Origin: Escherichia virus TH22
Strand: one strand, 5' to 3'
Sequence record: MT446396.1
DNA: 64,000 nt
A program made the position numbers and the translations under genes. This document shows, piece after piece, positions 20,066 through 59,366 of the stretch. The notes under the pieces are model-generated. The model ran no database searches. It was not told the origin of the DNA and was given only the letters and a program-made list of their open reading frames with translations. Position 1 is the stretch's first letter, and each line of letters opens with the position of its first letter.

Positions 20066-20773
20066 ATGAACTATCTAAAACATTACAATAACTTAATCCA
20101 ACGAGCTAAAAATCGAGCACCCATTGATGGTTACAAAGAGAAACATCACATTATTCCAAGATGTATGGGCGGATTAGATACTGATGAAAATTTAGTCGAG
20201 CTTACCGCTCCTGAACATTTTGTCGCCCACCTGTTATTGGTTAAAATTTATCCAGATAATCACTCGTTAGCACATGCTGCGAAAATTCTAATGGGTTCCA
20301 ACAATTACAATAACAAACAATTTGAATGGGTGCGCATCCGCGCTGTTGAGACTTCCATTAAGTTTCACACTGGACGTAAACGTTCAAAACAAACATGTGA
20401 AAATATTTCAAAAGCTCTTAAAGGTAAGAAATATGGCCCGCGCTCTGAAGAGCATTGCAAAAAGTTGTCAGAAGCAGCAAAGGGTAAAAAGTTCTCTGAA
20501 GAACATTGTAAGAAATTATCAGAAAGAGTGTTTACAGATGATTGGCGAGCAAAAATATCCAAGGCAAATAAAGAAAGAGTTTTGGTAAATCATAGCGAGA
20601 AAATAAAGCAAGGTATTACTGATGATGTCAGAAAACGTTTATCAGAGCTTAATAAAAATGCTCCCCGTCACACCTGTGAACACTGTGGAAAAATAACAAA
20701 TCCAGGCAACTATAAACGTTGGCATGGTGAAAATTGTAAGGTACTTAAAAATGGCGTACTCCGGGAAGTTTAA
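20066..20773 (+). CDS. Free-standing HNH homing endonuclease (mob-like) with repeated basic nucleic-acid-binding motifs
   Basis: N-terminal HNH signature EKHHIIPRCMGG...ENLVELTAPEHFVAHLL; repeated KKxSE(E)HCKKLSE motifs; stop overlaps gene 4 start. Confidence 0.8.
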   Translation: MNYLKHYNNLIQRAKNRAPIDGYKEKHHIIPRCMGGLDTDENLVELTAPEHFVAHLLLVKIYPDNHSLAHAAKILMGSNNYNNKQFEWVRIRAVETSIKFHTGRKRSKQTCENISKALKGKKYGPRSEEHCKKLSEAAKGKKFSEEHCKKLSERVFTDDWRAKISKANKERVLVNHSEKIKQGITDDVRKRLSELNKNAPRHTCEHCGKITNPGNYKRWHGENCKVLKNGVLREV

Positions 20774-21200: not shown

Positions 21201-22024
21201 GTATTTTTACATTTATCAATGAATCTGCAGATAAACCAGGTCCGAAACCCAGTAAATCAGAACAACAATGGGTTGAGATAGGGGTTGAATTTTATACAGC
21301 AAAAGAAAAAGGAATGACCTCGAAGAAGTTTGCTGAAGAGAAAGGAATCAACTATTCGACCTTTACCAAAAGCATGTCGAGGTATCATTCAAGAATTCAG
21401 ACTGCTTATAAAGTATCCAAGCTCAAAAAGAAACCTGCTGGTAAACTTACGAAGGCTGAACGCCAGCTGATAATGGTGAATAGCTTTAGGAAGAGCATAA
21501 GAGATAAGATTGCTAACGAAGGCGCTGCAAGCAACACCAAATCTGCCAGATGGTTCGCAGAGACAATTAAGAAATCAGTTCGCGGCCACGTAACGGCTAA
21601 ACCTCAACCAGGTAAACTTTATGCTTATATCTATGATGCAAAGCATAAGGATACTCTTCCATACTGGGACAAATATCCGTTAATCATTTATCTTGGTCTA
21701 GGTAAGCATAATTTGATGTACGGTTTGAACTTGCACTATATTCCACCGAAGGCACGTCAAGAGTTCCTTGAGGAACTTCTTAAGCAATATGCTAATACTC
21801 CTACGATTACAAACAAGACTCATCTGAAGATTGATTGGTCAAAGGTGAAGGGATTTAAAGGGGCTGACCAGATGATTAAAGCATATATACCCGGCAATAT
21901 AAAAGGTACTATCACTGAAATCAAGCCCAGCGACTGGGCAAATGTGGTATTACTCCCCCTTCAGCAGTTTTTTTCAAAAGGCAAAAGATATTCTTCCCAG
22001 AAAGTATGGAGAAATTCACTTTGA
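21197..22024 (+). CDS. 2: DNA end protector protein gp2
   Basis: Start at MSIFTF (ATGA overlap with gene 4 stop) gives 275 aa (T4 gp2 ~274 aa); in-frame alternative start at 21188. Confidence 0.8.
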
Positions 22025-22680
22025 ATTATCAGTTTATATATTCATCGTTAATTGAAAGGGCCTGTAACAGGGTCCTGATTTCATATAAAGAATCTCATCA
22101 CATCATTCCGAAATGTATGGGTGGTTCAAATGACCCAGATAATCTGGTCGATTTGACTCCTGAGGAACATTATGTAGCCCATCAACTATTGGTTAAAATA
22201 TATCCTACAAATCCAGGTTTAAGTTTTGCTGCTACATCCATGTGCCAGTCAAGCAAGTATTTGAAACGCAATAATAAATTATTTGGTTGGTTAAGACGTA
22301 GACACGCTGACAATATTTCTAAAAGTCAAACCGGTAAAGTTTACTTTAATAATGGTGTCAAATCGATAAAACTATTTCCATGGGAAAATATTCCGGATGG
22401 GTTTGTCAAAGGAAGACATTACAGTCCAACCAAGGGTACAAAACATTCTCGCAATAATGGTCATTTTAAAAATAAAGAGATTCAGGATGAATTGAGAAAG
22501 CGCCGGTGGGAAAAAGATAGGCAAGAAATGTGTAAAAACTTCGGAGTTGATACCGTCGAGCAAGCTCGAGAGTTGGTCTTAGCATATAAAAAGGAATTGC
22601 ATCCTCGATACTGGGTAAAGCCAATGTTGGAACGTTATCCGTTTATGACTAAGCTAAGACTTAACACATTAATAAAATAA
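22006..22680 (+). CDS. Free-standing HNH homing endonuclease (second copy, paralog of 20066)
   Basis: HNH signature [12 protein letters not shown]...[23 protein letters not shown] closely parallels the 20066 protein; start overlaps gene 2 end. Confidence 0.8.
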
Positions 22681-24039: not shown

Positions 24040-24730
<691 letters not shown>

Positions 24731-24790
24731 TGTACAAATGAGTGTAGGTGCAGTATTATGTTCCTACACCAACGAACAAACGGAGTTAAT
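24731..24790 (+). promoter_or_regulatory. Early promoter cassette with -10 inside inverted repeat
   Basis: TGTACA -35, 17-bp spacer, TATTAT -10 flanked by inverted repeat GTGTAGG...CCTACAC; precedes first internal-protein gene. Confidence 0.55.
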
Positions 24791-25123
24791 ATGAACATCA
24801 AAACTTACAACGAGTTTTTAGCCGAATCCGCCATCAATGAGACCAAATCAATTGATGATAGTGAAGGCTCTCTGAAATTTGGTTTAACCAAAAATGCAGA
24901 TGGTGTTTTCTTTCAGATTGGTAATGAACGTTTTCAAACGTCCAAATATTCCAAAGCTGCAGTTGAAGCTGTCCTGAAATCTGGTGGCAAGTGGAAAGGC
25001 AAAGAAGGTACTAAAGAAATTGGTATCGCTGTTGACGGTGGTATGGCTTATTTTAAAATTGGCGATGAACAATTTATTATGTCTGCTCGCGGACGTAAAG
25101 AACTGGCAAAACTTTATAAATAA
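24791..25123 (+). CDS. Internal protein (IP)-like, CTS variant MNIKTYNEFLAE
   Basis: N-terminus resembles the T4 capsid targeting sequence (MKTYQEFIAE) with a (L/I)xE protease site; first of five tandem genes; start chosen at internal Met of track ORF. Confidence 0.65.
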   Translation: MNIKTYNEFLAESAINETKSIDDSEGSLKFGLTKNADGVFFQIGNERFQTSKYSKAAVEAVLKSGGKWKGKEGTKEIGIAVDGGMAYFKIGDEQFIMSARGRKELAKLYK

Positions 25124-25412: not shown

Positions 25413-25712
25413 ATGCAAACGCTCCATGAATTTTTGGTAGAAAACAATTATCTGGCAGAAGCAAAAACCTGGCCTCTGGGCCTTCAGAAGAAAAACACCT
25501 ACAAATGGGTTGACTTCAAAGGTAAAGGCGACGCTGAAGACTTTGACCAGCTGTGTAAAAATGGTTATACCTTCCTTGACTCTAACTATAATAAAATTAC
25601 CTCATTTAGTCAGAAATCCAGCATTGCATATATTGAAACTGGTAAGAACACCCCTAAGAACATCACTGACGACTTCGCAGCTTATGGCGTGATTCGCGGT
25701 TCAAAAATGTAA
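25413..25712 (+). CDS. Internal protein-like, divergent CTS (MQTLHEFLVENNYLAE)
   Basis: Weaker CTS match but same tandem context and spacing. Confidence 0.5.
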   Translation: MQTLHEFLVENNYLAEAKTWPLGLQKKNTYKWVDFKGKGDAEDFDQLCKNGYTFLDSNYNKITSFSQKSSIAYIETGKNTPKNITDDFAAYGVIRGSKM

Positions 25713-25766
25713 TGTACATGATGGGATAACTGCAGTATAATTATCCCATCAACTACTGGAGACAAC
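25712..25766 (+). promoter_or_regulatory. Early promoter cassette (PeSL-like)
   Basis: TGTACA -35, TATAAT -10 within inverted repeat GGGATAA...TTATCCC, conserved leader CATCAACTACTGGAGACAAC then ATG. Confidence 0.7.
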
Positions 25767-26009
25767 ATGAAAACTTATCAAACATTTATAACAGAATCTT
25801 CCCATGGTATGGAAGTTAAACTTGGTCAAGCCCTTGCTGAAGCAGAGCGCCTGTTTGCACGTATCAAAGAACTTGCTGATTCTGTAGATGCATCATCTTT
25901 TAAAGGCGACCAGGGTAAAGTTAAAGCTCTCCTTGCTCTTTGTTCTGATGCAGGCGAAATTGCTAAGAATGGTACCAAGATGAAAAAACGCCTAGAAGAC
26001 TTAAAATAA
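25767..26009 (+). CDS. Internal protein-like, CTS MKTYQTFITES
   Basis: Near-exact CTS; 80 aa; own promoter cassette. Confidence 0.75.
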   Translation: MKTYQTFITESSHGMEVKLGQALAEAERLFARIKELADSVDASSFKGDQGKVKALLALCSDAGEIAKNGTKMKKRLEDLK

Positions 26010-26064: not shown

Positions 26065-26298
26065 ATGAAAACTTATCAAGAATTTATTAATGAAACTGCT
26101 GATGTTAAAGTGCAATTCATTTACACCGGCAAGAAAGATAAAATGGGCGAAATGCCTTATGGAACTCTCCGCGACGCCTTAGATAATTACGGTCAGCTCG
26201 GCGGTGAAGAGTTTGGGGACTATTTTGTTATCCAGGGTCCGGCAGAAGTTATCGAGAAATGGGCTAACAAGTATAAATCAATTTTCCGTAAAAAATAA
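26065..26298 (+). CDS. Internal protein-like, CTS MKTYQEFINET
   Basis: CTS nearly identical to T4 IP consensus; 77 aa. Confidence 0.75.
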   Translation: MKTYQEFINETADVKVQFIYTGKKDKMGEMPYGTLRDALDNYGQLGGEEFGDYFVIQGPAEVIEKWANKYKSIFRKK

Positions 26299-26357
26299 GT
26301 GTACTTTTAGATATGGGATAGTGTATAATTATCCCATCAACTACTGAGGAGAATAAA
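26299..26357 (+). promoter_or_regulatory. Early promoter cassette (PeSL-like)
   Basis: GTGTAC -35, TATAAT -10 within GGGATAG...TATCCC inverted repeat, leader CATCAACTACTGAGGAGAATAAA. Confidence 0.7.
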
Positions 26358-26543
26358 ATGAAACGTTGCGAATTAATTAGAAATGTTACTGCCCTTGTTG
26401 CTGTTACCGCTTTTGGTTTTAGCATGTTTGCTGGCTTTATGTTGAATATGCTTTCAACTTCTGAGAATATAATCTCTTTAGTAGTTGCATTCTTAATTGG
26501 TTCAATCTCTTTCGTTATGGATAAAATCTCTAAAGGTGAATAA
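26358..26543 (+). CDS. Small hydrophobic membrane protein
   Basis: 61 aa, two hydrophobic segments; directly after a promoter cassette. Confidence 0.6.
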   Translation: MKRCELIRNVTALVAVTAFGFSMFAGFMLNMLSTSENIISLVVAFLIGSISFVMDKISKGE

Positions 26544-27501: not shown

Positions 27502-27575
27502 GGCCCTGTAGCTGGACGGTCAAGCGAGCGACTCATAATCGCTGGATGGTGGTTCGATTCCACCCAGGGCCACCA
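27502..27575 (+). tRNA. tRNA with anticodon CAT (Met, or Ile if lysidine-modified)
   Basis: Cloverleaf folds by hand: acceptor GGCCCTG/CAGGGCC, D-loop with GG, anticodon stem AGCGA/TCGCT, loop CTCATAA, T-arm GGTGG-TTCGATT-CCACC, encoded CCA. Confidence 0.85.
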
Positions 27576-27709: not shown

Positions 27710-27785
27710 CGAGGCATAGCTCAGAAGGAAGAGCAAGGACCTTCTAAGTCCTAGGTCGTAGGTTCGATTCCTACTGTCTCGACCA
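27710..27785 (+). tRNA. tRNA-Arg (anticodon TCT)
   Basis: Acceptor CGAGGCA/TGTCTCG, D-arm GCTC...GAGC, anticodon stem AGGAC/GTCCT with loop CTTCTAA, T-arm GTAGG-TTCGATT-CCTAC, encoded CCA. Confidence 0.9.
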
Positions 27786-28162: not shown

Positions 28163-28717
28163 ATGAAACTTTTAAAATATCTAAGCTGGATTCTGTTAGT
28201 ACCACTGGATTTCATTTCAATGATTCTGGCTGTTATCCTTGCACCATTTGTAGTGCCGTTCCATAACAAAAAGACTGGTAAGCTTCCGTTCGGATTTGAC
28301 TGGATGATGACATACGATAATCCAATTGATGGTGACCGTGGTCATGTTAAACGCTGGGAAAAAATCAGAAAATGGCCGTTAGGCGTTTACTTCCAGCGAG
28401 TGGCCTGGCTCTGGCGAAACAAAGCCTACAATTTTGCTTATCATAAGCTGGGCCGCGATTGCGATTCTAAATTCCATTATAAAGGTAATCCTGATGTTGA
28501 ATCGGGCTCCCCGGATAAAGCTCACCATGGCTGGCTCTGGATGTGGAATGATAATGCATGGGGCGTGTTCGCTTCCGTACCTTATCTTAAAGTTGGTGGA
28601 ATCACCTTTTATCTGCGCGTGTATTGCGGTTGGAAGCTCAAAAGTCTTCTGTCCCGTCCTATCCCGAAAGCTATGTTAGCCTTTCATATCAATCCCTTCC
28701 GTTTTTATAAGAACTAA
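28163..28717 (+). CDS. Hypothetical membrane protein
   Basis: 184 aa, hydrophobic N-terminal segment; RBS GGAAATTTATG. Confidence 0.6.
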   Translation: MKLLKYLSWILLVPLDFISMILAVILAPFVVPFHNKKTGKLPFGFDWMMTYDNPIDGDRGHVKRWEKIRKWPLGVYFQRVAWLWRNKAYNFAYHKLGRDCDSKFHYKGNPDVESGSPDKAHHGWLWMWNDNAWGVFASVPYLKVGGITFYLRVYCGWKLKSLLSRPIPKAMLAFHINPFRFYKN

Positions 28718-28720
28718 TCA

Positions 28721-28746
28721 AACCCGCTCCGGCGGGTTTATTTTTA
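28721..28746 (+). terminator. Rho-independent terminator
   Basis: AACCCGC-TCCG-GCGGGTT hairpin followed by TTTATTTTT. Confidence 0.7.
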
Positions 28747-28764
28747 ATATTTCTTCAAAAAGTA

Positions 28765-28844
28765 GTGTACATCCGAATTGACCGGGTGCATAATGATTCC
28801 ATACTGAGTTACACACTGAATCACAAAAACTTTGGAGAAATAAA
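28765..28844 (+). promoter_or_regulatory. Early promoter cassette (B-type)
   Basis: GTGTAC -35, CATAAT -10, leader GATTCCATACTGAGTTAC...GGAGAAATAAA. Confidence 0.65.
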
Positions 28845-29270
28845 ATGAACTTTCTGACCCTGACCTCTGCATTTTCTGTTACCCGCATCACTAACAAAAT
28901 GGTTGCTGACGAAGTATGTGAAATCTGCATTCGTGAAGATGCACTTATCCATCTGACTTCAACCCAGATTGTTGCCATCGCTAAGTCCCTTAATTCTGAA
29001 CTGAAGGTAAACACCAAACAGTCAAAAGAATCCATCATTGAATTAATCCAAGCTGAAATGATTGAATTCCCAATTGAAGAAGTTAAAGAAGAAAAAATCC
29101 AGTCCAAATCTGGTAACGCCCGTGACATTTGCTTCCAGGCATTTGCAGAAATTGATATGAATGATAATGCAGCTCGCCGCGCTCTGATTGATGTTCTGGT
29201 TACCACCCATGATATCAAAAAGACTGTTGTTCAGTCATATGCTTCCAACTTCCGCAAAGCTCAAAAATAA
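28845..29270 (+). CDS. Hypothetical protein, paralog of 29723 (shared C-terminal domain)
   Basis: C-terminus ICFQAFAEIDMNDNAARRALIDVLV...VVQSYASNFRKAQK closely parallels the 29723 protein. Confidence 0.7.
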   Translation: MNFLTLTSAFSVTRITNKMVADEVCEICIREDALIHLTSTQIVAIAKSLNSELKVNTKQSKESIIELIQAEMIEFPIEEVKEEKIQSKSGNARDICFQAFAEIDMNDNAARRALIDVLVTTHDIKKTVVQSYASNFRKAQK

Positions 29271-29281
29271 TTGAGAAAAGT

Positions 29282-29352
29282 GTTTTACTTCCAGGTGGGA
29301 TAGTGTATAATTATCCCATACTGAGTTGCCAAATAAAACACTGGAGAATAAA
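29282..29352 (+). promoter_or_regulatory. Early promoter cassette (hybrid type)
   Basis: GTTTTAC -35, TATAAT -10 in GGGATAG...TATCCC inverted repeat, B-type leader ending CTGGAGAATAAA. Confidence 0.65.
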
Positions 29353-29649
29353 ATGTTTAACGCACCTGCATGGCACGCTACCCAAGCTCAAGAAGAAAAC
29401 AAAGCAATCATTTCTGCTAAAATTGAAGCTCAACTGAATGAATTGTGCGAAACTGCTTCTGAAGAAGTTGTTGCAATCATCAAACAGTATCCTGCATCCA
29501 ACTATTCTCTGGCATGCATTAAAACAGAAATGGTTAACTTATGGCGCAAGAACAAGAAAACTTTCTTGGGTATGCAGTATCAAGCAATTGCATCTGCAGT
29601 AGTAAACATGTATGACTTTGAAGTTTATTTCCCAACTTCTGAAAATTAA
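29353..29649 (+). CDS. Hypothetical protein
   Basis: Start at ATG after cassette leader (internal Met of track ORF); 98 aa. Confidence 0.6.
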   Translation: MFNAPAWHATQAQEENKAIISAKIEAQLNELCETASEEVVAIIKQYPASNYSLACIKTEMVNLWRKNKKTFLGMQYQAIASAVVNMYDFEVYFPTSEN

Positions 29650-29650
29650 T

Positions 29651-29722
29651 GTGTACTTTGGAATTTGACTAAGGCATAATGATTCCATACTGAGTTACCA
29701 AATAAACAAACGGGATAATAAA
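29651..29722 (+). promoter_or_regulatory. Early promoter cassette (B-type)
   Basis: GTGTAC -35, CATAAT -10, leader GATTCCATACTGAGTTACCAAATAAAC. Confidence 0.65.
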
Positions 29723-30166
29723 ATGAAAACTTCAAAACTGGTTAAGTACGTTAAACTGGCATTAAACAACTCTTCTGAAGCTGAAGCACAATCCGCAGCA
29801 CGTATGTTCTTCAAACGTCTGACAGCTGAAGGTATTTCATTTAACCCGGCAGTATTTGGTATCACTCGTGGCGAAGCTGTTAAACTGGCAACTCTGGCAG
29901 GTAAAATTTTTAAAGGTCTGAATGATGGACAGGTTAAAGCAGAAGTTAAACCTACTCCTAAAGCTGAACCAAAAGCTGAGCGTAAGGCACCTAAACGCTC
30001 CGGTATGAGCAACAAAGATTTATGCTATGATATGTTCAAAACTGTTAATATGTCTAATGGTGCCGCTCGTAGGGCTGTTATTGATATGATTGTGCGTGAG
30101 TTTGGATTCAACAAAGCATCAGTTCAGTCTTATGCTTCCAACTTCCGCAAAGAATTTGAAATTTAA
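29723..30166 (+). CDS. Hypothetical protein, paralog of 28845 (shared C-terminal domain)
   Basis: C-terminus LCYDMFKTVNMSNGAARRAVIDMIV...SVQSYASNFRKEFEI; Lys/Ala/Pro-rich linker. Confidence 0.7.
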   Translation: MKTSKLVKYVKLALNNSSEAEAQSAARMFFKRLTAEGISFNPAVFGITRGEAVKLATLAGKIFKGLNDGQVKAEVKPTPKAEPKAERKAPKRSGMSNKDLCYDMFKTVNMSNGAARRAVIDMIVREFGFNKASVQSYASNFRKEFEI

Positions 30167-30174
30167 TTCAAAAA

Positions 30175-30249
30175 GGGGGTATACAAGCCCCCTGCTTTAA
30201 GGCATAATGATTCCATACTGAGTTACACAATAAAACACTGGAGAATAAA
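30175..30249 (+). promoter_or_regulatory. Early promoter cassette with -35 in hairpin loop
   Basis: GGGGG-TATACAA-GCCCCC stem-loop carrying the -35, then CATAAT -10 and B-type leader. Confidence 0.65.
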
Positions 30250-30555
30250 ATGAAATTCATCATCAACCTGGCGCTTGTTGACTTTGATAAAACTGGTAAT
30301 TTCGCATCTGCTGAAAATATGATTCGTAACACCAAGTTTAAAGTGCAAGTTCAACAGGCGGTAGCAAAAGAGTTCTTTACTGATAAATTAACTAACGTTG
30401 TTAATCACCTGAATGTGCAAGTTAAATTTACTCGTGAAGCAGAAACTACTGTTGCATTTGATTTTGACTGCCAATACCATGATGAATATGTTCGCCGTAT
30501 CCTGGATATTGTGTCTGATGAACTTTACTATGGTGTGCAGGAAAATAAAATCTAA
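30250..30555 (+). CDS. Hypothetical protein
   Basis: 101 aa directly after cassette. Confidence 0.6.
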   Translation: MKFIINLALVDFDKTGNFASAENMIRNTKFKVQVQQAVAKEFFTDKLTNVVNHLNVQVKFTREAETTVAFDFDCQYHDEYVRRILDIVSDELYYGVQENKI

Positions 30556-30559
30556 ATCA

Positions 30560-30631
30560 GTGTACACTTTAATGGGAACATGATAGTATGTTCCCTGGAT
30601 AATAAAACATTAACCAACTGAAGGAAATACC
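30560..30631 (+). promoter_or_regulatory. Early promoter cassette
   Basis: GTGTAC -35; TAGTAT -10 inside inverted repeat GGGAACAT...ATGTTCCC. Confidence 0.65.
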
Positions 30632-31225
30632 ATGAATACTTTAAAGAAACTTGTTGAATTCATCCGCTCCAAACTGGGTACTGCAATGGCAAAAAACCTG
30701 TCTATTGAAGACCAATATACTCAAGCGGCGTCTACCCTGATTGACAAGATTACTGAGCTCCAGACTGCACACGTTAAGTCTGTTAATGAAGAAAAACGCA
30801 TCCGCGAATTAGCAAATGAAAAAGACCAACTCGCCGCTTCAAAAGAGCGGGAAATCCGCAAACTGATTGCTGATGGTGCTGATGTCCAGGTCCATGCTAA
30901 ACTGGGCCTCCTGTATCGTCGCACTGCTAAACAACTTCGTAAGAAGGCAGATGATTATGTTGAAATGCGTAATGAAATTAAATTGAAAGTTAAAGAGCTG
31001 GATGATTCTCGTCAGGAACTAGCTGTTAAACTGGAATACATCCGCGAAACCCGTAAGGTATCTGCCCTGGGTATTGCGACTGCAGATGATGTTGTTGAAA
31101 TCGCTGCATTGACTAAGATTGATATTGAAGACACCCTGATGCGTGTTGAAACCTTCAAAGGTCCACAGGTTGGTGTGGATACCACGTCAGCTGACATTGA
31201 AGAATACATCAATTCACTTAAGTAA
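30632..31225 (+). CDS. Hypothetical coiled-coil protein
   Basis: 197 aa rich in E/K/R/L heptad-like sequence. Confidence 0.6.
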
Positions 31226-33539: not shown

Positions 33540-33869
33540 ATGCACAGAGATTCAGTATTTAAATATCTTTTAAAAACAGATAAAGAATTTTATATGGATG
33601 GACAAGCATTCTTGTTCGTTCGCGGTAAGCGTGAAATGTTTTATAAATGCGACCTCTCCATGCATCATCACATGTACCATACCCATGGCGAGTCCATACT
33701 AGGGTTCTCTGGTGATGAGACTAAACATATAGCTATGTATTATGACCATTTCAAGCTTAATGATTGTGGTGATAATGCTTTGGTCTGGAATCCATCTTGG
33801 TGTCGGTGGGATACAATAGACAACAATAAATTATTTTTAGAATATTGCAGAAGTAGTATACAACTCTAG
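33540..33869 (+). CDS. Hypothetical His/Cys-rich protein
   Basis: Start at MHRDS after AGGAGG RBS; HHHMYHTH stretch and several Cys. Confidence 0.55.
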   Translation: MHRDSVFKYLLKTDKEFYMDGQAFLFVRGKREMFYKCDLSMHHHMYHTHGESILGFSGDETKHIAMYYDHFKLNDCGDNALVWNPSWCRWDTIDNNKLFLEYCRSSIQL

Positions 33870-33933
33870 AAAATCGTGTTACTATTCTCTTATCAACTGA
33901 TGACACTCACGTTATCAGAACAGGAGAATAAAA

Positions 33934-34134
33934 ATGTCTATCGCAAACGAATTAATCAAAGTTCTGAACGAAGCCAAAGCCAACCAACTGGAGGTTAATC
34001 TCCAGGAAGTTTCAGATGGCATTAAAGTAACCATCAGCGGCGATGGCGTTCCAGGCACTACAGAGGTTTACGATTCTTTGGAAGAAGTGGTTTCTTGCAT
34101 TAAAAGAGCCGTTTACTTATATGGTATAATTTGA
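33934..34134 (+). CDS. Hypothetical small protein
   Basis: 66 aa; preceded by degenerate promoter-like leader ending CAGGAGAATAAAAATG. Confidence 0.5.
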   Translation: MSIANELIKVLNEAKANQLEVNLQEVSDGIKVTISGDGVPGTTEVYDSLEEVVSCIKRAVYLYGII

Positions 34135-34325: not shown

Positions 34326-35285
34326 ATGATGTTAGTTATTGGCTCTCGCGCATTGCATAACGCCGGTCTGATTGAAAGTAAGAAAATTGAAAACTCTGAT
34401 TGGGACTTTATAGCAGACCAAGGTTCCTGGAACAACTTTAAAACCCAGATGATGGGGCAGCATGTTCCTGTGGATAACCCAGATGTGCAAGCTTTTAAGT
34501 GTATGCACAACGGTAAAGAAACCTATTTTGAAGCATACATCGTCCGAGCCCTGACAAGTGTTCGTGAGCTGACTGATGAGCTACAAGAGGAAGATTTTAC
34601 TTCCAGTTATCGTCTGCTCAAATATGCGAAGGCGAATATTCAGAAAGACCGTCTATCTGGTTTTTACTGGGCGACTCCTGATATTTGTCTGGCAATTAAA
34701 CTGTCTCATCGTTACCTGAAGAACAATCCATTCTTCCTGAAGACCATGAGTCATATTAATTACCTTCGTAATAAGGGTGTTGTTCTTAATGATGAACTGC
34801 AGAAAATCATGCTGCAACGCCAGGCAGAAACATTGTCATATAGCCACCCTAAACTAGACGTGGGCAAGAAAACTTTCTTTAATGATACAATCTATACCCT
34901 TGACCATGACTCCATCCACGAGGCCGTGGCACTTGCTGATAAGCCTGCATATAAGTTCTATATGAAGGATGATTCAGAAGTCATGACCTCACGTGAAAAA
35001 TTTGAAGCACTCCCTGATGTTATTAAACTGGCAGGGGTTTATGAAGAAGCATGTGTGCTTGCTCTGGAACGTTCACAGGTTCCTAATGAGTTCAATATCT
35101 CTCCATCCGTGAGCTTCCATATTGCTCTGGAAAAAGTCTGTACCTCCATTACTTCTGGATGGTTCCGTGAGTATGCCTGGGAACATTACCAGGATGTGGT
35201 TAATATGTACAACACCCTGGGACACGAAGACTATGTTAAACGTTTCAAAGCTAACCAACATTTAATTCGTCCTTTCGAAAAATAA
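34326..35285 (+). CDS. Hypothetical protein (319 aa)
   Basis: Long ORF with strong RBS; N-terminal GSRAL...SDWDFIAD is loosely reminiscent of a nucleotidyltransferase G-S...D-x-D motif but the spacing is atypical. Confidence 0.65.
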   Translation: MMLVIGSRALHNAGLIESKKIENSDWDFIADQGSWNNFKTQMMGQHVPVDNPDVQAFKCMHNGKETYFEAYIVRALTSVRELTDELQEEDFTSSYRLLKYAKANIQKDRLSGFYWATPDICLAIKLSHRYLKNNPFFLKTMSHINYLRNKGVVLNDELQKIMLQRQAETLSYSHPKLDVGKKTFFNDTIYTLDHDSIHEAVALADKPAYKFYMKDDSEVMTSREKFEALPDVIKLAGVYEEACVLALERSQVPNEFNISPSVSFHIALEKVCTSITSGWFREYAWEHYQDVVNMYNTLGHEDYVKRFKANQHLIRPFEK

Positions 35286-35344
35286 GTGTGTACAACCAAA
35301 TGGGGCTATGACATAATGGTCCCACAATCAATGAGGAAAATATT
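35286..35344 (+). promoter_or_regulatory. Early promoter cassette
   Basis: TGTACA -35, CATAAT -10 flanked by GGGGCTATG...(C)ATAATGGTCCC imperfect inverted repeat, leader GAGGAAAATATT. Confidence 0.65.
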
Positions 35345-36031
35345 ATGAACGGTCCTAAAACTTTTAATAGTCAAGCTCGTGCAGTAGGTGGTTTTGCCGG
35401 CGGTATTTCTAATGATAAAATCAAGAACGAGCCTATGTTCTTCAACTGTAGTTTAGAATTTGCTTATAATAACGGCGGTCCTATTACTCGCAGCTTCATC
35501 ATGAACTTGCCAGATGATTGGAACACCGACCAGGTTGTATTTGATTCTCGGGTTCATATGCTGATGCCTGGTTGGTATCCTGCTATCCCAGGTTATCACC
35601 ATGACGATGTACCACGCCCGGATATTCCGGTTGGTCAACACTTTATTACTGCAGGGCAACCTGATTATGATAATCCTCGTTACCATTCTGAACATATTCT
35701 TGGTCTTGTTAACGCTGATGTGTGTCCTACTTATTTTGCAACCGGAACTGCACAATTTAGTCAGATTCCTGAAGGCGAACTTATCTATCGCCAGTGGCAT
35801 AAAGAAGTTCTGGAAAAAATTGAGTCCAATGAATTAACCAAGTGGGATGCTCCTGACCGCACGTTGCTCCAGTTTGATTGGCAGACATGGCATACAGGTT
35901 CTCGCGCAGTAAGTAACGGTTGGCGCTGGTTTGGTCGCGTGTCTCGTAATACCGACCGTGTTAAAAAGATTACAAATGAAATCCGCGTTAATGCTCAAGT
36001 ATATCTGGAATTCCCTATGGAGGGATGGTAA
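35345..36031 (+). CDS. Hypothetical protein (228 aa)
   Basis: ORF directly after cassette; no motif I can name. Confidence 0.65.
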   Translation: MNGPKTFNSQARAVGGFAGGISNDKIKNEPMFFNCSLEFAYNNGGPITRSFIMNLPDDWNTDQVVFDSRVHMLMPGWYPAIPGYHHDDVPRPDIPVGQHFITAGQPDYDNPRYHSEHILGLVNADVCPTYFATGTAQFSQIPEGELIYRQWHKEVLEKIESNELTKWDAPDRTLLQFDWQTWHTGSRAVSNGWRWFGRVSRNTDRVKKITNEIRVNAQVYLEFPMEGW

Positions 36032-37316: not shown

Positions 37317-37808
37317 ATGAATATATTCGAAATGTTACGCATAGATGAAGGTTGTAAGTTGGATTTGTACCGTGACACCGAAGGCTTTTGGACCATCGGC
37401 ATCGGTCAATTGATAACTAAGAACCCATCGAAAGACGTTGCTCGCGCTGAGCTGGACAAATTAATGGGTCGTGTTTGCAACGGTAGGATTACCCAGATTG
37501 AAGCTGAAACCTTGTTTAACCGTTCAGTGGAAAAAGCTAAAGCCGGAATCTTGAAACATCCTGTCTTAAAACCTGTTTATGATGTACTGGATGAAGTTCG
37601 TCGTTGCGCACTCATTAATATGGTATTCCAAATGGGTGTAGCTGGTGTAGCTGGTTTTCCTAAGGGGCTGCGATTGCTCAAGGCTAAATCATGGGAAGCT
37701 GCTGCTAAGGAACTGGCTGACTCAAGATGGTATAAAGTCCAGACTCCGAACCGGGCCAAACGAGTTATTGAAACTTTCCGTACTGGAACTTTTGACGCAT
37801 ACAAATGA
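37317..37808 (+). CDS. e: Endolysin (T4 lysozyme e)
   Basis: [12 protein letters not shown]...[14 protein letters not shown]...[19 protein letters not shown] matches T4 lysozyme over its length (163 vs 164 aa). Confidence 0.95.
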
Positions 37809-37864
37809 GTTTACATCTCCAAACGATAGGGTTATAATGACCCTATCAACTACGGAGAACAAAC
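37809..37864 (+). promoter_or_regulatory. Early promoter cassette
   Basis: GTTTAC -35; TATAAT -10 in loop of inverted repeat GATAGGG...CCCTATC. Confidence 0.7.
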
Positions 37865-38281
37865 ATGACTCGCATTAATTTAACCCTGGTATCTGAACTT
37901 GCTGACCAACACCTTATGGCTGAATACCGTGAGCTTCCTCGCGTGTTTGGTGCTGTTCGTAAGCATGTGCAAAATGGTAAAAAGGTGTCTGACTTTAAAA
38001 TCCCATCATCTTTTCTTTTAGGAACTGGTCATGTCACCTTCTTTTATGATAAGCTTTTGTTCCTTAAAAACCGTCATCAAGAACTTATTGCTGAATGTTT
38101 AAAGCGAGGGTTTAATATAAAAGATATTTCTACCCAAGATTTAAATGATATTCCTGATGAATGGAAGAATGATTATCAACCATCAATCTGGTCAATTGAA
38201 ATCAGTCAATCCAGACTGAATGAGAAAATTTCTCAAAAGCCTACCTGGTACAAATACTATGGGAAAGCTGTGTACGCTTAA
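37865..38281 (+). CDS. denV: Endonuclease V (pyrimidine-dimer DNA glycosylase)
   Basis: [35 protein letters not shown]...[13 protein letters not shown] matches T4 DenV (138 aa). Confidence 0.95.
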
Positions 38282-38329
38282 CTAAAAAGGTTGTATAATG
38301 ATTTTATCAACCAAACAATGGAATATAAA
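38270..38329 (+). promoter_or_regulatory. Early promoter cassette overlapping denV stop
   Basis: GTGTAC -35 within last denV codons, TATAAT -10 inside GGTTG...CAACC inverted repeat. Confidence 0.6.
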
Positions 38330-38644
38330 ATGAAAACTTATCAAGAATTTATTACTGAATCTACTCAACAACGTGTTGAAGGTGGTTATGTCTGGATTGA
38401 ACAGTTAACCCCACCAAGTGAAACAAGCACTGGTTCGTGGAAAATTACTGTTGATGGTCCTGGTGGAAAACGCAAGACTATTAAAGAAATTAAAGGTTAT
38501 TATGACGAAGCTAAATCATGGGCTGGTAGTCATGTAATGCAGATTAAAATTGCAAACCCAGATAACGTTCATGCGGCAAAAGCGTTCCGTCGCATTGGTA
38601 ATAAACTTTATGATGCGTTTTTGCGCGATTTCCCTAAAGCTTAA
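38330..38644 (+). CDS. Internal protein-like, CTS MKTYQEFITES
   Basis: Start at internal Met of track ORF; CTS identical to the 38658 protein; position matches T4 ipII/ipIII beside denV/e. Confidence 0.7.
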   Translation: MKTYQEFITESTQQRVEGGYVWIEQLTPPSETSTGSWKITVDGPGGKRKTIKEIKGYYDEAKSWAGSHVMQIKIANPDNVHAAKAFRRIGNKLYDAFLRDFPKA

Positions 38645-38921: not shown

Positions 38922-39063
38922 TAATTAAATGGGAATAACCTGGACCTCAATCCTGAGGGACTCCCGCCAACCTGTAATAAGGTCGAGCCCGCGGCGGTAA
39001 TGGGTAATACAGGAAGGGATGAATTAATGTGCCAAGGAACGGCCCCACAACTAAGAGACAACT

Positions 39064-39591
39064 ATGAAATTTTTAACTCCAATTTATCTAACCTTAATGC
39101 ACGCCTTCGCTGAACGCGCCATTGAACGCTTAGATTCAGACCAATACACCTGGTATGAACCTACTTCAAGAATGCAAGAGTTTGGTACTCTTAGACTTGA
39201 TGGTGGAAGACAAACAGGTAAAACAAGTGCCATTGCACAGTTCGCCGCAGATTGGGTTTCTAAGGGTAATGATGTGATTGTTATGTCGAGTTCTTCGCAT
39301 CGCTCACGAGAAATCTGTGATATAATAAAGCGGGTTTCTAAAGCACAACCACATCTTAATGTTGAACGACCTGGTTTTGTTGTATATGATACCGTTCGTT
39401 CATTTTTAGACGAAGATAATTTCCATAAGTATCGTGGGTTATCTGTTACTCGATTATTGATTATTATCGAAGAGCCTATTCGCCTTCCAGCGATGGATAA
39501 GTTCTATGAAGCTTACCAGGTAATGCTGAATAAATTTATGTGTCAAGGTTCTAAACCTCTGCCGTTATTCTTTGTGATAGGAATGCAATAA
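39064..39591 (+). CDS. P-loop NTPase-like protein
   Basis: Walker A-like GGRQTGKTS and hydrophobic strand then acidic residue (LLIIIEE). Confidence 0.6.
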   Translation: MKFLTPIYLTLMHAFAERAIERLDSDQYTWYEPTSRMQEFGTLRLDGGRQTGKTSAIAQFAADWVSKGNDVIVMSSSSHRSREICDIIKRVSKAQPHLNVERPGFVVYDTVRSFLDEDNFHKYRGLSVTRLLIIIEEPIRLPAMDKFYEAYQVMLNKFMCQGSKPLPLFFVIGMQ

Positions 39592-40098: not shown

Positions 40099-40677
<579 letters not shown>

Positions 40678-40678
<1 letters not shown>

Positions 40679-40734
40679 TGTACAAGCAGGTTGAAATGAG
40701 TTATGATTATCCCATCAAACAAAAGGAGATAATC
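40678..40734 (+). promoter_or_regulatory. Early promoter cassette
   Basis: GTGTAC -35, TATGAT -10, leader TATCCCATCAAACAAAAGGAGATAATC. Confidence 0.65.
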
Positions 40735-41193
40735 ATGACTACTATCGATTCAAGTGTTTACATTCGCCGCAATAAACTTCGTCGTATTTTTGAAACGGAG
40801 TTCCTCAAAATTAATAATGCTATCAACAAGGCTTGTAAAGAAGCAGGTCTTGAAGCATTCTTCATTAAGTACAGTCCACACCTGTTGGACCGTGCAATCC
40901 AACGTGAAATTGACGAACAATATGTTTTTGACTTGTTTGGAAAAATCACACCACATGTAAAAGAAATCGTTGAATTCCTGGAGATGAAACCACTCCCGGA
41001 AGTTGAAGCACAAATTGACCCGAGTGTGAACTACCGTCCACTTCGTCTGGAAATCACAGACAAGAACCTATGGTTAGGAATGACAGTTAACCCAGCTCTT
41101 CCTGGGAAGTCTCCAACCATGTGTTGTCGTATGGCGTTTGTTAACTCTAATCGTCTTGAAGGAAAAATTAGCACAAAAGTGATTTATATCTAA
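40735..41193 (+). CDS. regB: Sequence-specific endoribonuclease RegB
   Basis: Start at MTTIDSSVYIRRNKLRR...SPHLLDRAIQREIDE...RPLRLEITDKNLWLG matches T4 RegB as I recall it; 152 aa (T4 153). Confidence 0.8.
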   Translation: MTTIDSSVYIRRNKLRRIFETEFLKINNAINKACKEAGLEAFFIKYSPHLLDRAIQREIDEQYVFDLFGKITPHVKEIVEFLEMKPLPEVEAQIDPSVNYRPLRLEITDKNLWLGMTVNPALPGKSPTMCCRMAFVNSNRLEGKISTKVIYI

Positions 41194-44551: not shown

Positions 44552-44581
44552 AAAAGGTCTGCCTTCGGGTGGACCTTTTTT
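44552..44581 (+). terminator. Rho-independent terminator
   Basis: AAAGGTC...GACCTTT hairpin with GC-rich inner stem, followed by TTTTTT. Confidence 0.65.
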
Positions 44582-44589
44582 CATTTAGG

Positions 44590-44648
44590 GGTTTACATCC
44601 TCATCAAAAGGGTGTACTATTATCCCATCAACTACTGAGGAGAATACA
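44590..44648 (+). promoter_or_regulatory. Early promoter cassette
   Basis: GTTTAC -35, TACTAT -10, leader TATCCCATCAACTACTGAGGAGAATACAA. Confidence 0.65.
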
Positions 44649-44852
44649 ATGAGAATTAAAAATATCAAGATTGATGCAGTTAATACTGGTGATGAGGTTG
44701 TTATCTATCTTAATGATTATGCAATCTTTATGGACAGTGCCACTGATGAAGAAGTGGTTGAACTCTTACAGAAAGCTCCATTTGAACTGTGTGAAGAAGA
44801 TGCTACCCATCTTTCATCAGCAATTTTCTCATTATCATATGTGGTGGAATAA
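44649..44852 (+). CDS. Hypothetical small protein
   Basis: 67 aa directly after cassette. Confidence 0.55.
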   Translation: MRIKNIKIDAVNTGDEVVIYLNDYAIFMDSATDEEVVELLQKAPFELCEEDATHLSSAIFSLSYVVE

Positions 44853-47882: not shown

Positions 47883-48071
47883 ATGAAGGTCTTCTTATCA
47901 TATGGAAGACCCAATAAAGGTCGGCGCTGGTATCTCGAAGCAGTCTGTCGGAAAACTGGCAGACGAATCAACATTAAGTACACGTGTAAACCAACTTCCA
48001 AACAAACCAGGCGTTTTGTTAACTGGGCTATCAATATTATAAGATTCCATAATTTTTGGAGTGCAATCTAA
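47883..48071 (+). CDS. Small basic protein
   Basis: Start at MKVFLSYG; Arg/Lys-rich. Confidence 0.45.
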   Translation: MKVFLSYGRPNKGRRWYLEAVCRKTGRRINIKYTCKPTSKQTRRFVNWAINIIRFHNFWSAI

Positions 48072-48097
48072 GGACCCTTCGGGGTCCTTTTTTATTT
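48071..48097 (+). terminator. Rho-independent terminator
   Basis: AGGACCC-TTCG-GGGTCCT hairpin followed by TTTTTTATTTT. Confidence 0.75.
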
Positions 48098-48106
48098 TAA
48101 AAAGTA

Positions 48107-48174
48107 GTGTACAACAAGATGGTCATGAGGCATAATGATTCCATACTGAGTTACCAAATAAACTGGAGAATAAA
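48107..48174 (+). promoter_or_regulatory. Early promoter cassette (B-type)
   Basis: GTGTAC -35, CATAAT -10, leader GATTCCATACTGAGTTACCAAATAAACTGGAGAATAAA. Confidence 0.7.
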
Positions 48175-48381
48175 ATGTTAGAATTAATCAAAGCTGCTGG
48201 TGAAAAAGGTCTGATGGTTAACACTCGTGACCCTGAACAACGTCAAGCATTTGGTGAGTTAAAAGCCAAAGGTCTGGTTAAAGCATCCCTTGGTATTGGT
48301 AATGCTTTGCGTGTGACTTTGACCCCTGCAGGTAAAGCAATGTTCTTCCCTAAACCATTACCAAAACGTCGTCGCAAGTGA
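48175..48381 (+). CDS. Hypothetical small basic protein
   Basis: 68 aa; C-terminal KRRRK. Confidence 0.55.
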   Translation: MLELIKAAGEKGLMVNTRDPEQRQAFGELKAKGLVKASLGIGNALRVTLTPAGKAMFFPKPLPKRRRK

Positions 48382-51297: not shown

Positions 51298-51298
51298 T

Positions 51299-51355
51299 GT
51301 TTACTTCCAAGGATGGAGGGAGTATAATGAATTCCTACTTTATGAGGAGAACACT
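51299..51355 (+). promoter_or_regulatory. Early-type promoter
   Basis: GTTTAC -35, 18-nt spacer, TATAAT -10; leader ends GAGGAGAACACT ATG. Confidence 0.6.
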
Positions 51356-57644: not shown

Positions 57645-57758
57645 ATTTAATTATATTATGGATACTATAAATGATATGATTTTTCATTTTGGTCCAGAAT
57701 TTTATTCGCAGTATAGTTTAGTGCTTATCAATGCTTGGTTAATCAATTAAGGGTAAAT

Positions 57759-58568: not shown

Positions 58569-58574
58569 AAAGGG

Positions 58575-59359: not shown

Positions 59360-59366
59360 GGAAAAC

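Follow-up and report, generated by a model that had tools for sequence, protein, structure and literature searches.

The early region of this T4-like phage raises a simple question: are the similar cassettes that precede many of its small genes, several with the -10 element enclosed in an inverted repeat, mobile regulatory modules that shuffle genes, or are they the early promoters of the phage? The original prediction took the inverted repeats and the long shared leaders as marks of mobility. Our analysis of the window (the whole stretch of 64,000 nucleotides, Escherichia virus TH22, MT446396.1) points instead, with a probability of about 0.8, to sigma-70-dependent early promoters of Gaprivervirus, each packaged with the full 5' untranslated leader of the gene that it drives.

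Genomic context

The window is 93-96% identical to phages of the VR20/VR25/VR7 group, and its source is a Gaprivervirus of the VR20/VR7/SP18 group of T4-like phages. Genes of the early region follow the order gp57B-ip-tRNA-e-denV-regB-tk-nrdC-gp49-gp55. All cassettes lie in this region, at 24.7-59.8 kb; the late-gene block (1-20 kb) has none. Within the focal segment 28765-30631, five consecutive genes have a cassette each, and the ORFs match only PHROGs of unknown function.

A strand-specific family of promoter cassettes

Sites were scored with position weights for an upstream/-35 block and a -10 block, allowing spacers of 16-18 bp and a cut-off of 12 bits. In the window, 19 sites on the plus strand reach this cut-off and none on the minus strand, with runners-up at about 10-11 bits; under an 18-seed model site 33857 passes too, giving 19-20 sites on the plus strand. 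A generic TTGACA/TATAAT scan returned 65 sites against 56 expected and 67 against 63 expected, with no enrichment over shuffled sequence, which places the signal in a family-specific motif and not in promoter-like noise. Generic sigma-70 and terminator scans were dropped for defining the family, their use being to locate three upstream terminators.

Taken together, the family comprises 18 strong intergenic cassettes, two weaker ones (33857, which overlaps an ORF end, and 59277, inside an ORF) and one half-cassette with a -10 only, all on the plus strand. All 19 sites listed in the original prediction are present where it placed them, and the motif scan, the strand specificity and the T4 counterparts described below agree with its view of them as T4-early-type promoters. 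Its count of more than twenty was slightly high. "Near-identical" holds from the -10 to the ATG inside one leader flavour but not elsewhere, since spacers differ and ungapped identity among copies is 60-90%. The statement that nearly every small early gene has a cassette fails: about 19 of the 99 plus-strand junctions between 24 and 62.5 kb have one.

Each cassette is 55-90 bp long and runs from an A-rich UP region through the -35 G(T/G)TACA, a 17-bp spacer, the -10 and a leader of 19-44 nt to a Shine-Dalgarno (SD) sequence and ATG, which close every copy. Alignments reveal a 12-nt A-rich block 5' of the -35 (e.g., AAAAAGTAG). The AT-rich tract, the SD with its ATG and, as recognised by sequence, an early promoter with -35, spacer of about 17 bp and -10 are the elements expected of a promoter-early stem-loop (PeSL). 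The features are as follows.

24719-24802, plus: cassette of an IP-like gene; -35 TGTACA 24731, -10 TATTAT 24754, SD GGAG, ATG 24800; 25.1 bits; inverted repeat GTGTAGG/CCTACAC, 24742-24748/24763-24769
25701-25769, plus: flavour A cassette, internal head protein; -35 25713, -10 TATAAT 25736, ATG 25767; 33.2 bits; 11-bp inverted repeat 25719-25729/25741-25751; the repeat extends about 30 nt into capsid-targeting codons
25999-26067, plus: flavour A cassette nearly the same as the preceding one; -35 TATACA 26011, -10 26034, ATG 26065; 11-bp inverted repeat 26017-26027/26039-26049
26288-26360, plus: flavour A cassette, trna.4 orthologue; -35 26300, -10 26324, ATG 26358; inverted repeat ATGGGATA/TATCCCAT; perfect match to the RegB/S1 site, GGAGAATAAAA, at 26348
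28720-28739, plus: terminator-like hairpin with T-run immediately 5' of cassette 28766, from the intrinsic-terminator scan
28754-28847, plus: flavour B cassette, long variant; -35 28766, -10 CATAAT 28789, SD GGAGAAATAAA, ATG 28845; 39.3 bits; no inverted repeat at the -10
29272-29355, plus: flavour B cassette; -35 TTTACT 29284, -10 29306, inverted repeat TGGGATA/TATCCCA, RegB/S1 match 29343, ATG 29353
29640-29725, plus: flavour B cassette; -35 29652, -10 CATAAT 29675, SD GGGATAATAAAA, ATG 29723
30168-30252, plus: flavour B cassette; -35 TATACA looped by an AGGGGG/CCCCCT hairpin, 30174-30193; RegB/S1 match 30240; ATG 30250
30549-30634, plus: e.6 orthologue cassette with a leader of its own; -35 30561, -10 TAGTAT 30584, ATG 30632; 19.5 bits; 8-bp inverted repeat GGGAACAT/ATGTTCCC
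33845-33936, plus: weak cassette overlapping the end of ORF 33540-33869; TATACA-17-TACTAT, ATCAACTG, RegB/S1 match 33923, ATG 33934
35277-35347, plus: cassette; -35 35289, -10 CATAAT 35312, hairpin with one G.U pair, ATG 35345
37798-37867, plus: denV cassette, flavour A; -35 TTTACA 37810, -10 TATAAT 37833 looped by 8-bp inverted repeat GATAGGGT/ACCCTATC, SD GGAGAACAAAC, ATG 37865
38259-38332, plus: cassette 5' of an internal-protein gene; -35 TGTACG 38271, -10 38294, weak 5-bp stem, ATG 38330
40667-40737, plus: regB cassette; -35 40679, -10 TATGAT 40702, SD GGAGATAATCA, ATG 40735; 22.9 bits
40735-41193, plus: regB gene (PF10715, E=1.4e-71)
44552-44651, plus: terminator-like hairpin (44552-44579), then flavour A cassette; -35 TTTACA 44592, -10 TACTAT 44615, SD GGAGAATACAA, ATG 44649
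48070-48177, plus: terminator-like hairpin (48070-48089), then flavour B cassette; -35 48108, -10 48131, RegB/S1 match 48165, ATG 48175; 41.3 bits
48682-48763, plus: flavour B cassette; -35 48694, -10 48717, 9-bp stem AGTATGGGA/TCCTATACT with one G.T pair, RegB/S1 match 48751, ATG 48761
51288-51358, plus: cassette; -35 TTTACT 51300, -10 TATAAT 51323, SD GGAGAACACTA, ATG 51356
58564-58638, plus: flavour A cassette; -35 looped by an AAGGGG/CCCCTT hairpin, 58570-58589; -10 TATCAT 58599; ATG 58636
59265-59369, plus: promoter-type site in the 3' end of ORF 59066-59359, 5' of ORF 59367; TATACG-17-TATAAT; 18.3 bits; also present in VR20
59705-59771, plus: half-cassette missed by the motif model; -10 TATAAT within 7-bp inverted repeat GGGTCAT/ATGACCC, no recognisable -35, ATG 59769

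The shared leader end matches the RegB/S1 consensus

Alignments confirm the two leader flavours that had been proposed. The 3' end common to the cassettes is GGAGAATAAAA, identical to the published 11-nt cleavage consensus of RegB and ribosomal protein S1; the RegB target has been given as GGAGRAYARAA, with GGAGAAUAAAA as the T4 consensus (Durand 2006, PMC1702504). Strict GGAGRAYARAA occurs six times on the plus strand of the window and never on the minus strand, against 0.19 expected; five matches lie within strong cassettes and the sixth (33923) within the weak 33857 cassette. GGAG serves as the SD of 13 of the 19 cassette genes compared with 13 of 91 others (p=5e-6), and regB's own SD contains it.

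RegB is an endoribonuclease that cuts GGAG in early leaders. In line with this, the 11-nt matches are intergenic, folding of cassette-initiated RNA gives them a predicted unpaired probability of 0.56-0.85, and the phage encodes a RegB. By sequence and by analogy with T4, the cassette leaders would thus be probable targets of RegB cleavage, although the denV-type site is RegB-resistant in T4. The long shared leaders had been read as a sign of mobility; this view is not sustained, since their 3' end is a RegB/S1 site with SD and flavour A is kept at T4 orthologues.

The flavour B leader, of about 45 nt, is nearly invariant, occurs in 8-13 copies per genome and is almost restricted to one genus. 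Across the whole window, only two tRNAs reach the Rfam gathering score, leaders and hairpins having no family match, and folding of the conserved, GC-rich spacer 38922-39066 as a candidate RNA gives no excess structure (z=+0.94). Literal searches of papers for the leader sequences returned only unrelated primer matches.

Cassettes are mostly inherited in place, with one clear recombinant

In 10 relatives the syntenic 49-kb locus has 17-21 sites each, and in a Dhakavirus it has 10; the opposite strand is empty in all of them. All 44 sites in the complete genome of the close relative TH44 likewise lie on a single strand, which marks the cassettes as the probable early-promoter set of the phage. 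In T4, the same model finds promoter-type sites 5' of ipI, trna.4, e.8, e.7, e.6, ipIII, ipII, denV and regB. Inverted repeats around the -10 are evident at ipI, trna.4, e.7, ipIII, ipII and denV, and the ATCAACTAC..GGAG leader, that is flavour A at orthologous promoters, at trna.4, e.8 and denV; T4 denV has the leader of the denV cassette described here with a different stem. As the T4 GenBank record is devoid of promoter features, orthology to mapped T4 promoters rests on the motif scan and general knowledge; our literature search found no genome-wide T4 start-site data set.

These observations give weight to the reading that the cassettes are ordinary, vertically inherited early promoters, alike through shared function and descent, with no extra recombinogenicity and with gene-content differences falling simply at gene boundaries. 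Across the 10 relatives, the individual -35 and spacer of each cassette stay in place, which indicates mostly vertical inheritance, and T4 has counterparts at orthologous genes. Modules of a cassette with an IP gene or small ORF are present or absent among relatives, and many indels are not bordered by a cassette on either side.

The distribution of breakpoints also speaks for ordinary promoters. Cassette zones, 6.1% of the sequence, hold 23 of 104 breakpoints (p=6e-8 against a uniform background), but 87 of the 104 lie at gene junctions of any kind. A homology breakpoint falls in 15 of 19 cassette junctions and in 45 of 80 others (one-sided Fisher p=0.057), and among spacer-matched junctions of at least 20 nt in 12 of 17 others (p=0.42). 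The junction-matched test therefore attributes most of the signal to indels falling between genes, and the uniform-background test was rejected as evidence of a hotspot.

Three observations nevertheless count against the purely ordinary reading. First, in TH40, TH55, TH41 and TH15, four of the 10 relatives, a chimera joins the 5' half of cassette 29284 to the 29652 leader, and the intervening 98-aa ORF is missing; the crossover falls within CCATACTGAGTT, a shared 12-mer downstream of the hairpin. Second, function alone hardly accounts for a near-invariant flavour B leader so often repeated in one genus. Third, a C-to-A leader polymorphism (GTTACC to GTTAAC) occurs at three paralogous positions in different genomes. 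Overall, we hold the purely ordinary reading to be somewhat improbable. The gene shuffling envisaged in the original prediction is thus partly supported, by one clean cassette recombinant, while its hotspot claim lacks a significant breakpoint excess.

Stem-loops around the -10 and -35

The inverted repeats stand up to a background comparison: perfect arms of at least 7 bp enclose the -10 in 7 of 18 cassettes, whereas 4.9% of random 51-mers taken from this strand have such arms (binomial p ~1e-5). The half-cassette at 59705 has a like hairpin, and at 30180 and 58576 a 6-bp G/C hairpin holds the -35 in its loop, as had been claimed. Some 12-14 of the 18 cassettes contain a stem-loop: seven have the perfect -10 repeat of 7 bp or more, two or three a stem that includes a G.U pair, two a hairpin at the -35 and three a terminator upstream. 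About a third (4-6) have none, namely 28766 in its own promoter part, 29652, 40679 and 51300, so that the hairpin is not essential.

Among 122 unique cassettes, drawn from related and hence non-independent sequences, pairing of at least 6 bp between spacer and discriminator occurs in 59% compared with 14% when partners are swapped. These cassettes have about 41 different stem sequences, and pairing is maintained across three genera while the stem sequence varies. Mismatches inside stems are G.T in seven cases and A.C in two (p=0.09, not significant); the direction fits an RNA hairpin, but counts so few and partly non-independent were set aside as evidence.

The -10 repeats could be terminators or attenuators of upstream transcription, as in RB49/phi1 PeSLs, one of whose stem-loops has demonstrated terminator activity (Arbiol 2010, PMC2839356). 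In this regard, cassettes with a -10 hairpin tend not to have a stable hairpin upstream or at the -35, and -10 hairpins and canonical upstream terminators are nearly exclusive, as expected if both do the same job. However, the 3' arm is followed by ATCAACTACTG or ATACTGAG and not by a U-run, so these are not canonical intrinsic terminators, and the intrinsic-terminator scan of the plus strand detects the upstream hairpins at 28720, 44552 and 48070 but not those at the -10. We therefore find this reading rather unlikely, and the terminator/attenuator role of the RB49 stem-loops may not carry over to the -10 hairpins.

Dedicated integron-like or site-specific recombination recognising the hairpin, which would make the cassettes true mobile elements, was raised by Arbiol 2010 (PMC2839356) and agrees with the presence or absence of cassette-ORF modules and the conservation of hairpins as structures. 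It is very improbable: some 41 stem sequences leave no common recognition sequence, the sole resolved crossover lies in plain identity 3' of the hairpin, positions are stable among relatives, a third of cassettes have no hairpin, and we noticed no recombinase in the gene annotation of the region. Equally remote are operators for a dimeric repressor that silences early promoters, for although the palindromes overlap the -10, the classic operator position, and how T4 shuts off its early promoters is reported to be incompletely understood, varied stems with pairing kept, a symmetry centre that moves several bases from cassette to cassette and mismatches that are mostly of G.T type suggest nucleic-acid structure and not a protein site; the stem diversity led us to set both readings aside.

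A proposed model for the early promoter cassettes

Our favoured reading, early promoters packaged with their leaders, can be put as a model. The UP region, -35 G(T/G)TACA, 17-bp spacer and -10 (T/C)ATAAT would draw host RNA polymerase right after infection, and transcription would start about 7 nt past the -10, as judged from the sequence and from T4, leaving a mostly unstructured leader of 19-44 nt. The leader's 3' end (GGAG plus an A-rich run, consensus GGAGAATAAAA) would be both Shine-Dalgarno and target of RegB acting with S1, so that early messages would be briefly translated and then inactivated. About two thirds of the cassettes would add one stem-loop, either GC-rich and terminator-like, upstream of or around the -35, or of the -10 type, with the 5' arm in the spacer and the 3' arm over the end of the -10 and the start site. 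Since cassettes share 12-50 bp of identical sequence, an occasional crossover by the homologous recombination system of the phage would delete, insert or swap the small genes between them.

With its 3' arm covering the start site, the -10 hairpin would form only in RNA read through from upstream and not in the cassette's own transcript. There it would most probably act as an attenuator, barrier or 3'-end protector that insulates neighbouring genes. A bolder, speculative version, to which we give little credence as yet, is that it is a selected sense-strand RNA element, with structure kept in at least three Tevenvirinae genera, which forms a two-part insulator with the RegB/S1 site 6-30 nt downstream: RegB would cut the SD of the downstream gene, the hairpin would either cap the 3' end so created on the upstream message or attenuate read-through, leaving the expression of each small early gene essentially to its own promoter. 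If so, PeSL stem-loops would gain a defined post-transcriptional role and their position over the -10 would be explained. As a variant, templated (quasi-palindrome) correction in replication could keep the palindromes perfect.

For a genus often proposed for therapy, these findings provide a sequence-based map of early promoters, 5' leaders and probable RegB sites. Two features may be of use to specialists: the exact RegB/S1 consensus that closes a conserved leader, and the -10 pairing that persists across genera with changing sequence, nearly exclusive with upstream terminators.

Comparison with known systems

The PeSL literature invoked in the original prediction exists and fits (Arbiol 2010, PMC2839356; Comeau 2014, PMC4122927). 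As in RB49/phi1 PeSLs, most of whose stem-loops lie between -35 and -10 or over the -10 (Arbiol 2010, PMC2839356), the cassettes combine an intergenic AT-rich region, early promoter, stem-loop, SD and ATG, cluster in hyperplastic early regions before small ORFs of unknown function, and recombine between neighbouring copies to delete or insert the intervening ORF; two (30180, 58576) share the G-run/C-run stem. The RB49 promoter, however, is TTGACA whereas that described here is of the T-even early type, and stems here are mostly AT-richer and varied, with no U-run after the -10 hairpins; the likeness shown is one of architecture. The PeSL definition also includes demonstrated promoter and terminator/attenuator activity and mini-circles, while the present cassettes are described from their sequence.

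The promoter consensus of PST/T4 PeSLs, TTTACW-N17-TAYWAT (Comeau 2014, PMC4122927), resembles that of the present cassettes closely. The PST stem-loops lie just upstream of the promoter according to that paper's legend, whereas the -10 is enclosed by many of those found here and in our T4 scan; in this genus most -35 elements are TGTACA, and the flavour B leader is essentially Gaprivervirus-specific. T4 ipI, ipII, ipIII, denV and trna.4 share the -10-in-hairpin build, and trna.4, e.8 and denV leader A. The T-even IP-locus elements are, as reported through Arbiol 2010, tied to variable internal-protein genes (Repoila 1994); several cassettes here likewise lie 5' of IP genes beginning MKTYQEFI.

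T4 early promoters consist of UP, -35, TGn and -10 elements with further conserved regions (Hinton 2010, PMC2988021). The cassettes resemble them by sequence, with an A-rich upstream region, -35 and -10, 17-bp spacer, extra conserved positions and a single strand, and in number (about 40 per genome in T4, 44 in TH44), the -35 variant here being GTGTACA. At early SDs, GGAGAATAAAA is identical to the T4 RegB/S1 target consensus (Durand 2006, PMC1702504; Uzan and Miller 2010, PMC3014915), although the strict consensus fits only 5-7 of 19 leaders and the sites are predicted. Integron cassettes and lambdoid 'morons', the analogies of Arbiol 2010, also have small genes with their own expression signals, but here there is no integrase or attC-type site, exchange seems homologous and positions are largely stable.

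The published PeSL picture is thereby extended to Gaprivervirus and Dhakavirus and tempered, as breakpoints fall at gene junctions generally and cassettes are not demonstrably hotter in this data set. The cassettes match the published PeSL and T-even IP-locus elements: they are real, but largely ordinary for T4-type phages.

Early promoter cassettes and their distribution

Escherichia phages VR20, VR25, VR7, SP18 and the TH series (Gaprivervirus, Tevenvirinae) match the window at 93-96% identity, and JS98-type Dhakavirus at ~82%. According to annotated relatives, 1-20 kb carries late baseplate genes on the opposite strand and 20-64 kb is the early region, all on the + strand, with the gene order gp57B, internal proteins, tRNAs, e.x genes, nudE, e, denV, vs genes, regB, tk, mobD.x, nrdC.x, gp49, nrdD/G and gp55.

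The cassettes, each an early promoter with its 5' leader and named here by the start of its -35, are built from an A-rich tract, a -35 G(T/G)TACA, a 17-bp spacer, a -10 (T/C)ATAAT and a conserved discriminator/start region (T/G)AT(C/T)CCAT, followed by the leader (19-44 nt, with the start placed 7 nt past the -10), the Shine-Dalgarno (SD) and the ATG. All 19 sites listed in the original prediction are present. A position-weight model, combining a block that covers the -35 and its upstream sequence with a block around the -10 (spacer 16-18 bp), was scanned over both strands of the whole window and returned 19 + strand sites scoring 12 bits or more (24731-59277) and none on the - strand; the runners-up reached only 10-11 bits. 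The weak site 33857 additionally passes with an 18-seed model; at site 59705 the -10 lies within a hairpin and no -35 is recognisable. Scanning the window for generic TTGACA/TATAAT promoters gave no enrichment over shuffles, and the signal therefore resides in the family-specific motif.

Taken together, the observation of a cassette family is solid, as is its reading as T4-early-type promoters, with the family motif confined to one strand of the early region. Its extent had been overstated, however: 18 full and 3 partial cassettes were counted rather than more than twenty, and they occupy only ~19 of the 99 + strand gene junctions in 24-62.5 kb, not the start of nearly every small early gene. 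Near-identity holds from the -10 to the ATG inside one leader flavour, but not elsewhere. In the stretch 28765-30631, five consecutive genes each have a cassette. Two of them, the ORFs 28845-29270 and 29723-30166, are paralogues without an assigned function that share a C-terminal domain, as judged by cross-matches to PHROGs 9997 and 18416. They also have 31 nt of near-identical DNA in common (29229-29259, 30122-30152).

Among 10 Gaprivervirus relatives, the syntenic 49 kb holds 17-21 cassette-type sites, with none on the opposite strand, and one Dhakavirus has 10. In the complete TH44 genome, one strand carries 44 sites and the other 0, a number close to that of the early promoters reported for T4. 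On these scans, the cassettes are the predicted early-promoter set of the phage.

Leader flavours and putative RegB/S1 sites

The two leader flavours that had been proposed were both recovered by alignment.

Leader flavours of the cassettes (positions of the -35, + strand)
25713, 26011, 26300, 37810, 44592, 58576: flavour A, ATCAACTACTG(A)GGAG...
40679: flavour A, degenerate
28766, 29284, 29652, 30180, 48108, 48694: flavour B, ATACTGAGTTACCAAATAAA..AC..GGAGAATAAAATG

The T4 trna.4, e.8 and denV promoters have the same ATCAACTAC..GGAG leader as flavour A, which is thus not peculiar to this phage. Flavour B was found in ~40 records, almost all of them Gaprivervirus, at 8-13 copies per genome. 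Among the very few matches outside Gaprivervirus, a flavour-B-like sequence in the T4-like Morganella phage MP1 (KX078569.1, 61827-61874; 86% identity over 49 nt) is annotated as 'promoter' by its depositors.

The 3' end that the leaders have in common, GGAGAATAAAA, is identical to the 11-nt sequence (general form GGAGRAYARAA) that the RegB endoribonuclease, acting with ribosomal protein S1, needs in order to cleave T4 early mRNAs efficiently (Durand et al., 2006, PMC1702504; reviewed by Uzan and Miller, 2010, PMC3014915). The strict pattern occurs 6 times on the + strand of the window against 0.19 expected, and 0 times on its - strand; five matches (26348, 29343, 30240, 48165 and 48751) lie within strong cassettes and the sixth (33923) within the weak cassette 33857. 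A GGAG Shine-Dalgarno precedes 13/19 cassette genes versus 13/91 other genes (p=5e-6). Folding predictions for RNA started at the cassettes leave the 11-mers largely unpaired, matching the requirement of the enzyme, and regB itself lies at 40735-41193, 3' of its own cassette (Pfam PF10715, E=1.4e-71). In this regard, a role of the leader as putative RegB/S1 target is well supported by sequence, by analogy with established T4 knowledge.

Inverted repeats and hairpins

Perfect arms of 7-11 bp surround the -10 in 7/18 cassettes, compared with 4.9% of random 51-mers, and cassettes 48694 and 35289 have equivalent stems, each with one G.U-compatible pair. As had been described, the loop of a G-run/C-run hairpin contains the -35 at 30180 and 58576, and canonical terminator-like hairpins precede cassettes 28766, 44592 and 48108.

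Pooling the window with 11 relatives and T4 gave 122 unique cassettes. In 59% of them the spacer forms 6 bp or more with the -10/discriminator region of the same cassette, against 14% with swapped partners. This set has ~41 different stem sequences, and the orthologous denV position has three different stems in the window, VR20 and T4; pairing is therefore conserved and sequence is not. Cassettes with a -10 hairpin tend not to have a stable hairpin upstream or at the -35 as well (pooled odds ratio 0.06-0.2; p=0.02 at one threshold in the window alone), although the hairpin p-values are indicative only because the pooled samples are related.

Since its 3' arm covers the start site, the -10 hairpin can form only in RNA reading in from upstream, and it is not a textbook terminator because no U-run follows it. 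Stem mismatches (G.T 7 versus A.C 2) lean towards a sense-strand RNA structure, but not significantly. We consider the -10 hairpin to be real as a structure, while its role is uncertain. An unusually GC-rich intergenic stretch 5' of the vs.8 orthologue (38922-39066), kept among relatives, has a predicted RNA structure no better than shuffled controls (z=+0.94) and no Rfam match.

Cassettes and recombination

When blastn matches of the window to 11 relatives were chained, 104 distinct homology breakpoints emerged in 24-62.5 kb. Cassette zones, 6.1% of the sequence, hold 23/104 of them (p=6e-8); this value is misleading, however, because 87/104 breakpoints sit at gene junctions of whatever kind.

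Junctions with a breakpoint (one-sided Fisher test against cassette junctions)
Cassette junctions: 15/19 (reference)
Other junctions: 45/80, p=0.057
Other junctions with a spacer of at least 20 nt: 12/17, p=0.42

Cassette boundaries thus coincide with differences in gene content, as had been anticipated, but these junction counts are not specific to cassettes, and for the suggested recombination hotspot no significant excess over other junctions was seen.

Several other differences were noted among relatives. Segment 28133-28741, with the DUF7338 gene (28163-28717) and the terminator of that gene, is missing in VR25, VR7 and TH57; on the right, this indel stops 24 nt 5' of the -35 of cassette 28766. 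The nrdD/nrdG block (55360-57758) is absent in VR7, TH15, TH44 and Dhakavirus CLBP2 and has a cassette at neither end. Two tRNA genes, tRNA-Met (cat, 27502-27575) and tRNA-Arg (tct, 27710-27785), lie in a 450-nt gene-free stretch where breakpoints among relatives cluster. ORFs 20066-20773 (235 aa) and 22021-22680 (219 aa), insertions missing from 10/11 and 8/11 relatives respectively, have weak NUMOD3/HNH matches and a common 122-nt repeat (70% identity), and probably encode homing endonucleases.

TH40, TH55, TH41 and TH15 have a chimera whose promoter half comes from cassette 29284 and whose leader comes from cassette 29652; the crossover falls within the common CCATACTGAGTT, and ORF 29353-29649 is lost. 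A cassette acted here, once, as recombination substrate. Relatives also have extra modules of a cassette with an internal-protein gene, and some cassettes with the -35 half or core exchanged. Across all relatives, each position keeps the -35 and spacer particular to its cassette, which speaks against the free mobility suggested for these modules.

The internal-head-protein ORFs starting at 25767, 26065, 38330 and 38658 begin with the capsid-targeting sequence MKTYQEFI, and at cassettes 25713, 26011 and 38271 the DNA repeat therefore extends past the ATG by ~30 nt of coding sequence. Breakpoints lie exactly at ATG+30 in several cases (25798, 26094, 38362), so that the targeting-sequence codons also serve as recombination homology.

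In flavour B, the same C-to-A change (GTTACC to GTTAAC) occurs at three paralogous cassettes in different genomes, and the number of (C)AAAC units in the leader middle varies among orthologues (e.g. 48153-48164; 33666 in a relative's locus, L006), hinting at slippage and short gene-conversion tracts. A 791-nt insertion between terminator 48070-48089 and cassette 48108, present in TH54 (locus L004, 34125-34915) and TH40 (locus L005, 33703-34493), appears to carry an opposite-strand gene, for which an SD and an ATG can be read in the reverse complement.

Comparison with promoter-early stem-loops

The literature invoked on promoter-early stem-loops (PeSLs) does exist for T4-type phages (Arbiol et al., 2010; Comeau et al., 2014); in it JS98 appears only in passing, and nothing was found on Gaprivervirus. 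PeSLs were first defined in RB49/phi1 as an AT-rich tract, strong early promoter, stem-loop, SD and ATG, with the stem-loop most often overlying the -10 or standing between it and the -35; they form clusters in hyperplastic regions, their recombination yields mini-circles, and their promoter and terminator activities were shown by experiment (Arbiol et al., 2010, PMC2839356). They were later extended to PST/T4 (TTTACW-N17-TAYWAT) and nt-1/KVP40 (Comeau et al., 2014, PMC4122927). At the level of sequence, the cassettes have the elements that define a PeSL, with a predicted stem-loop in about two thirds of them. In the account of Repoila 1994 contained in Arbiol et al. (2010, PMC2839356), T-even internal-protein loci have analogous elements, with AT-richer stems on T4 early promoters, and it is to this T-even type, based on the T4 early promoter, that the cassettes described here belong.
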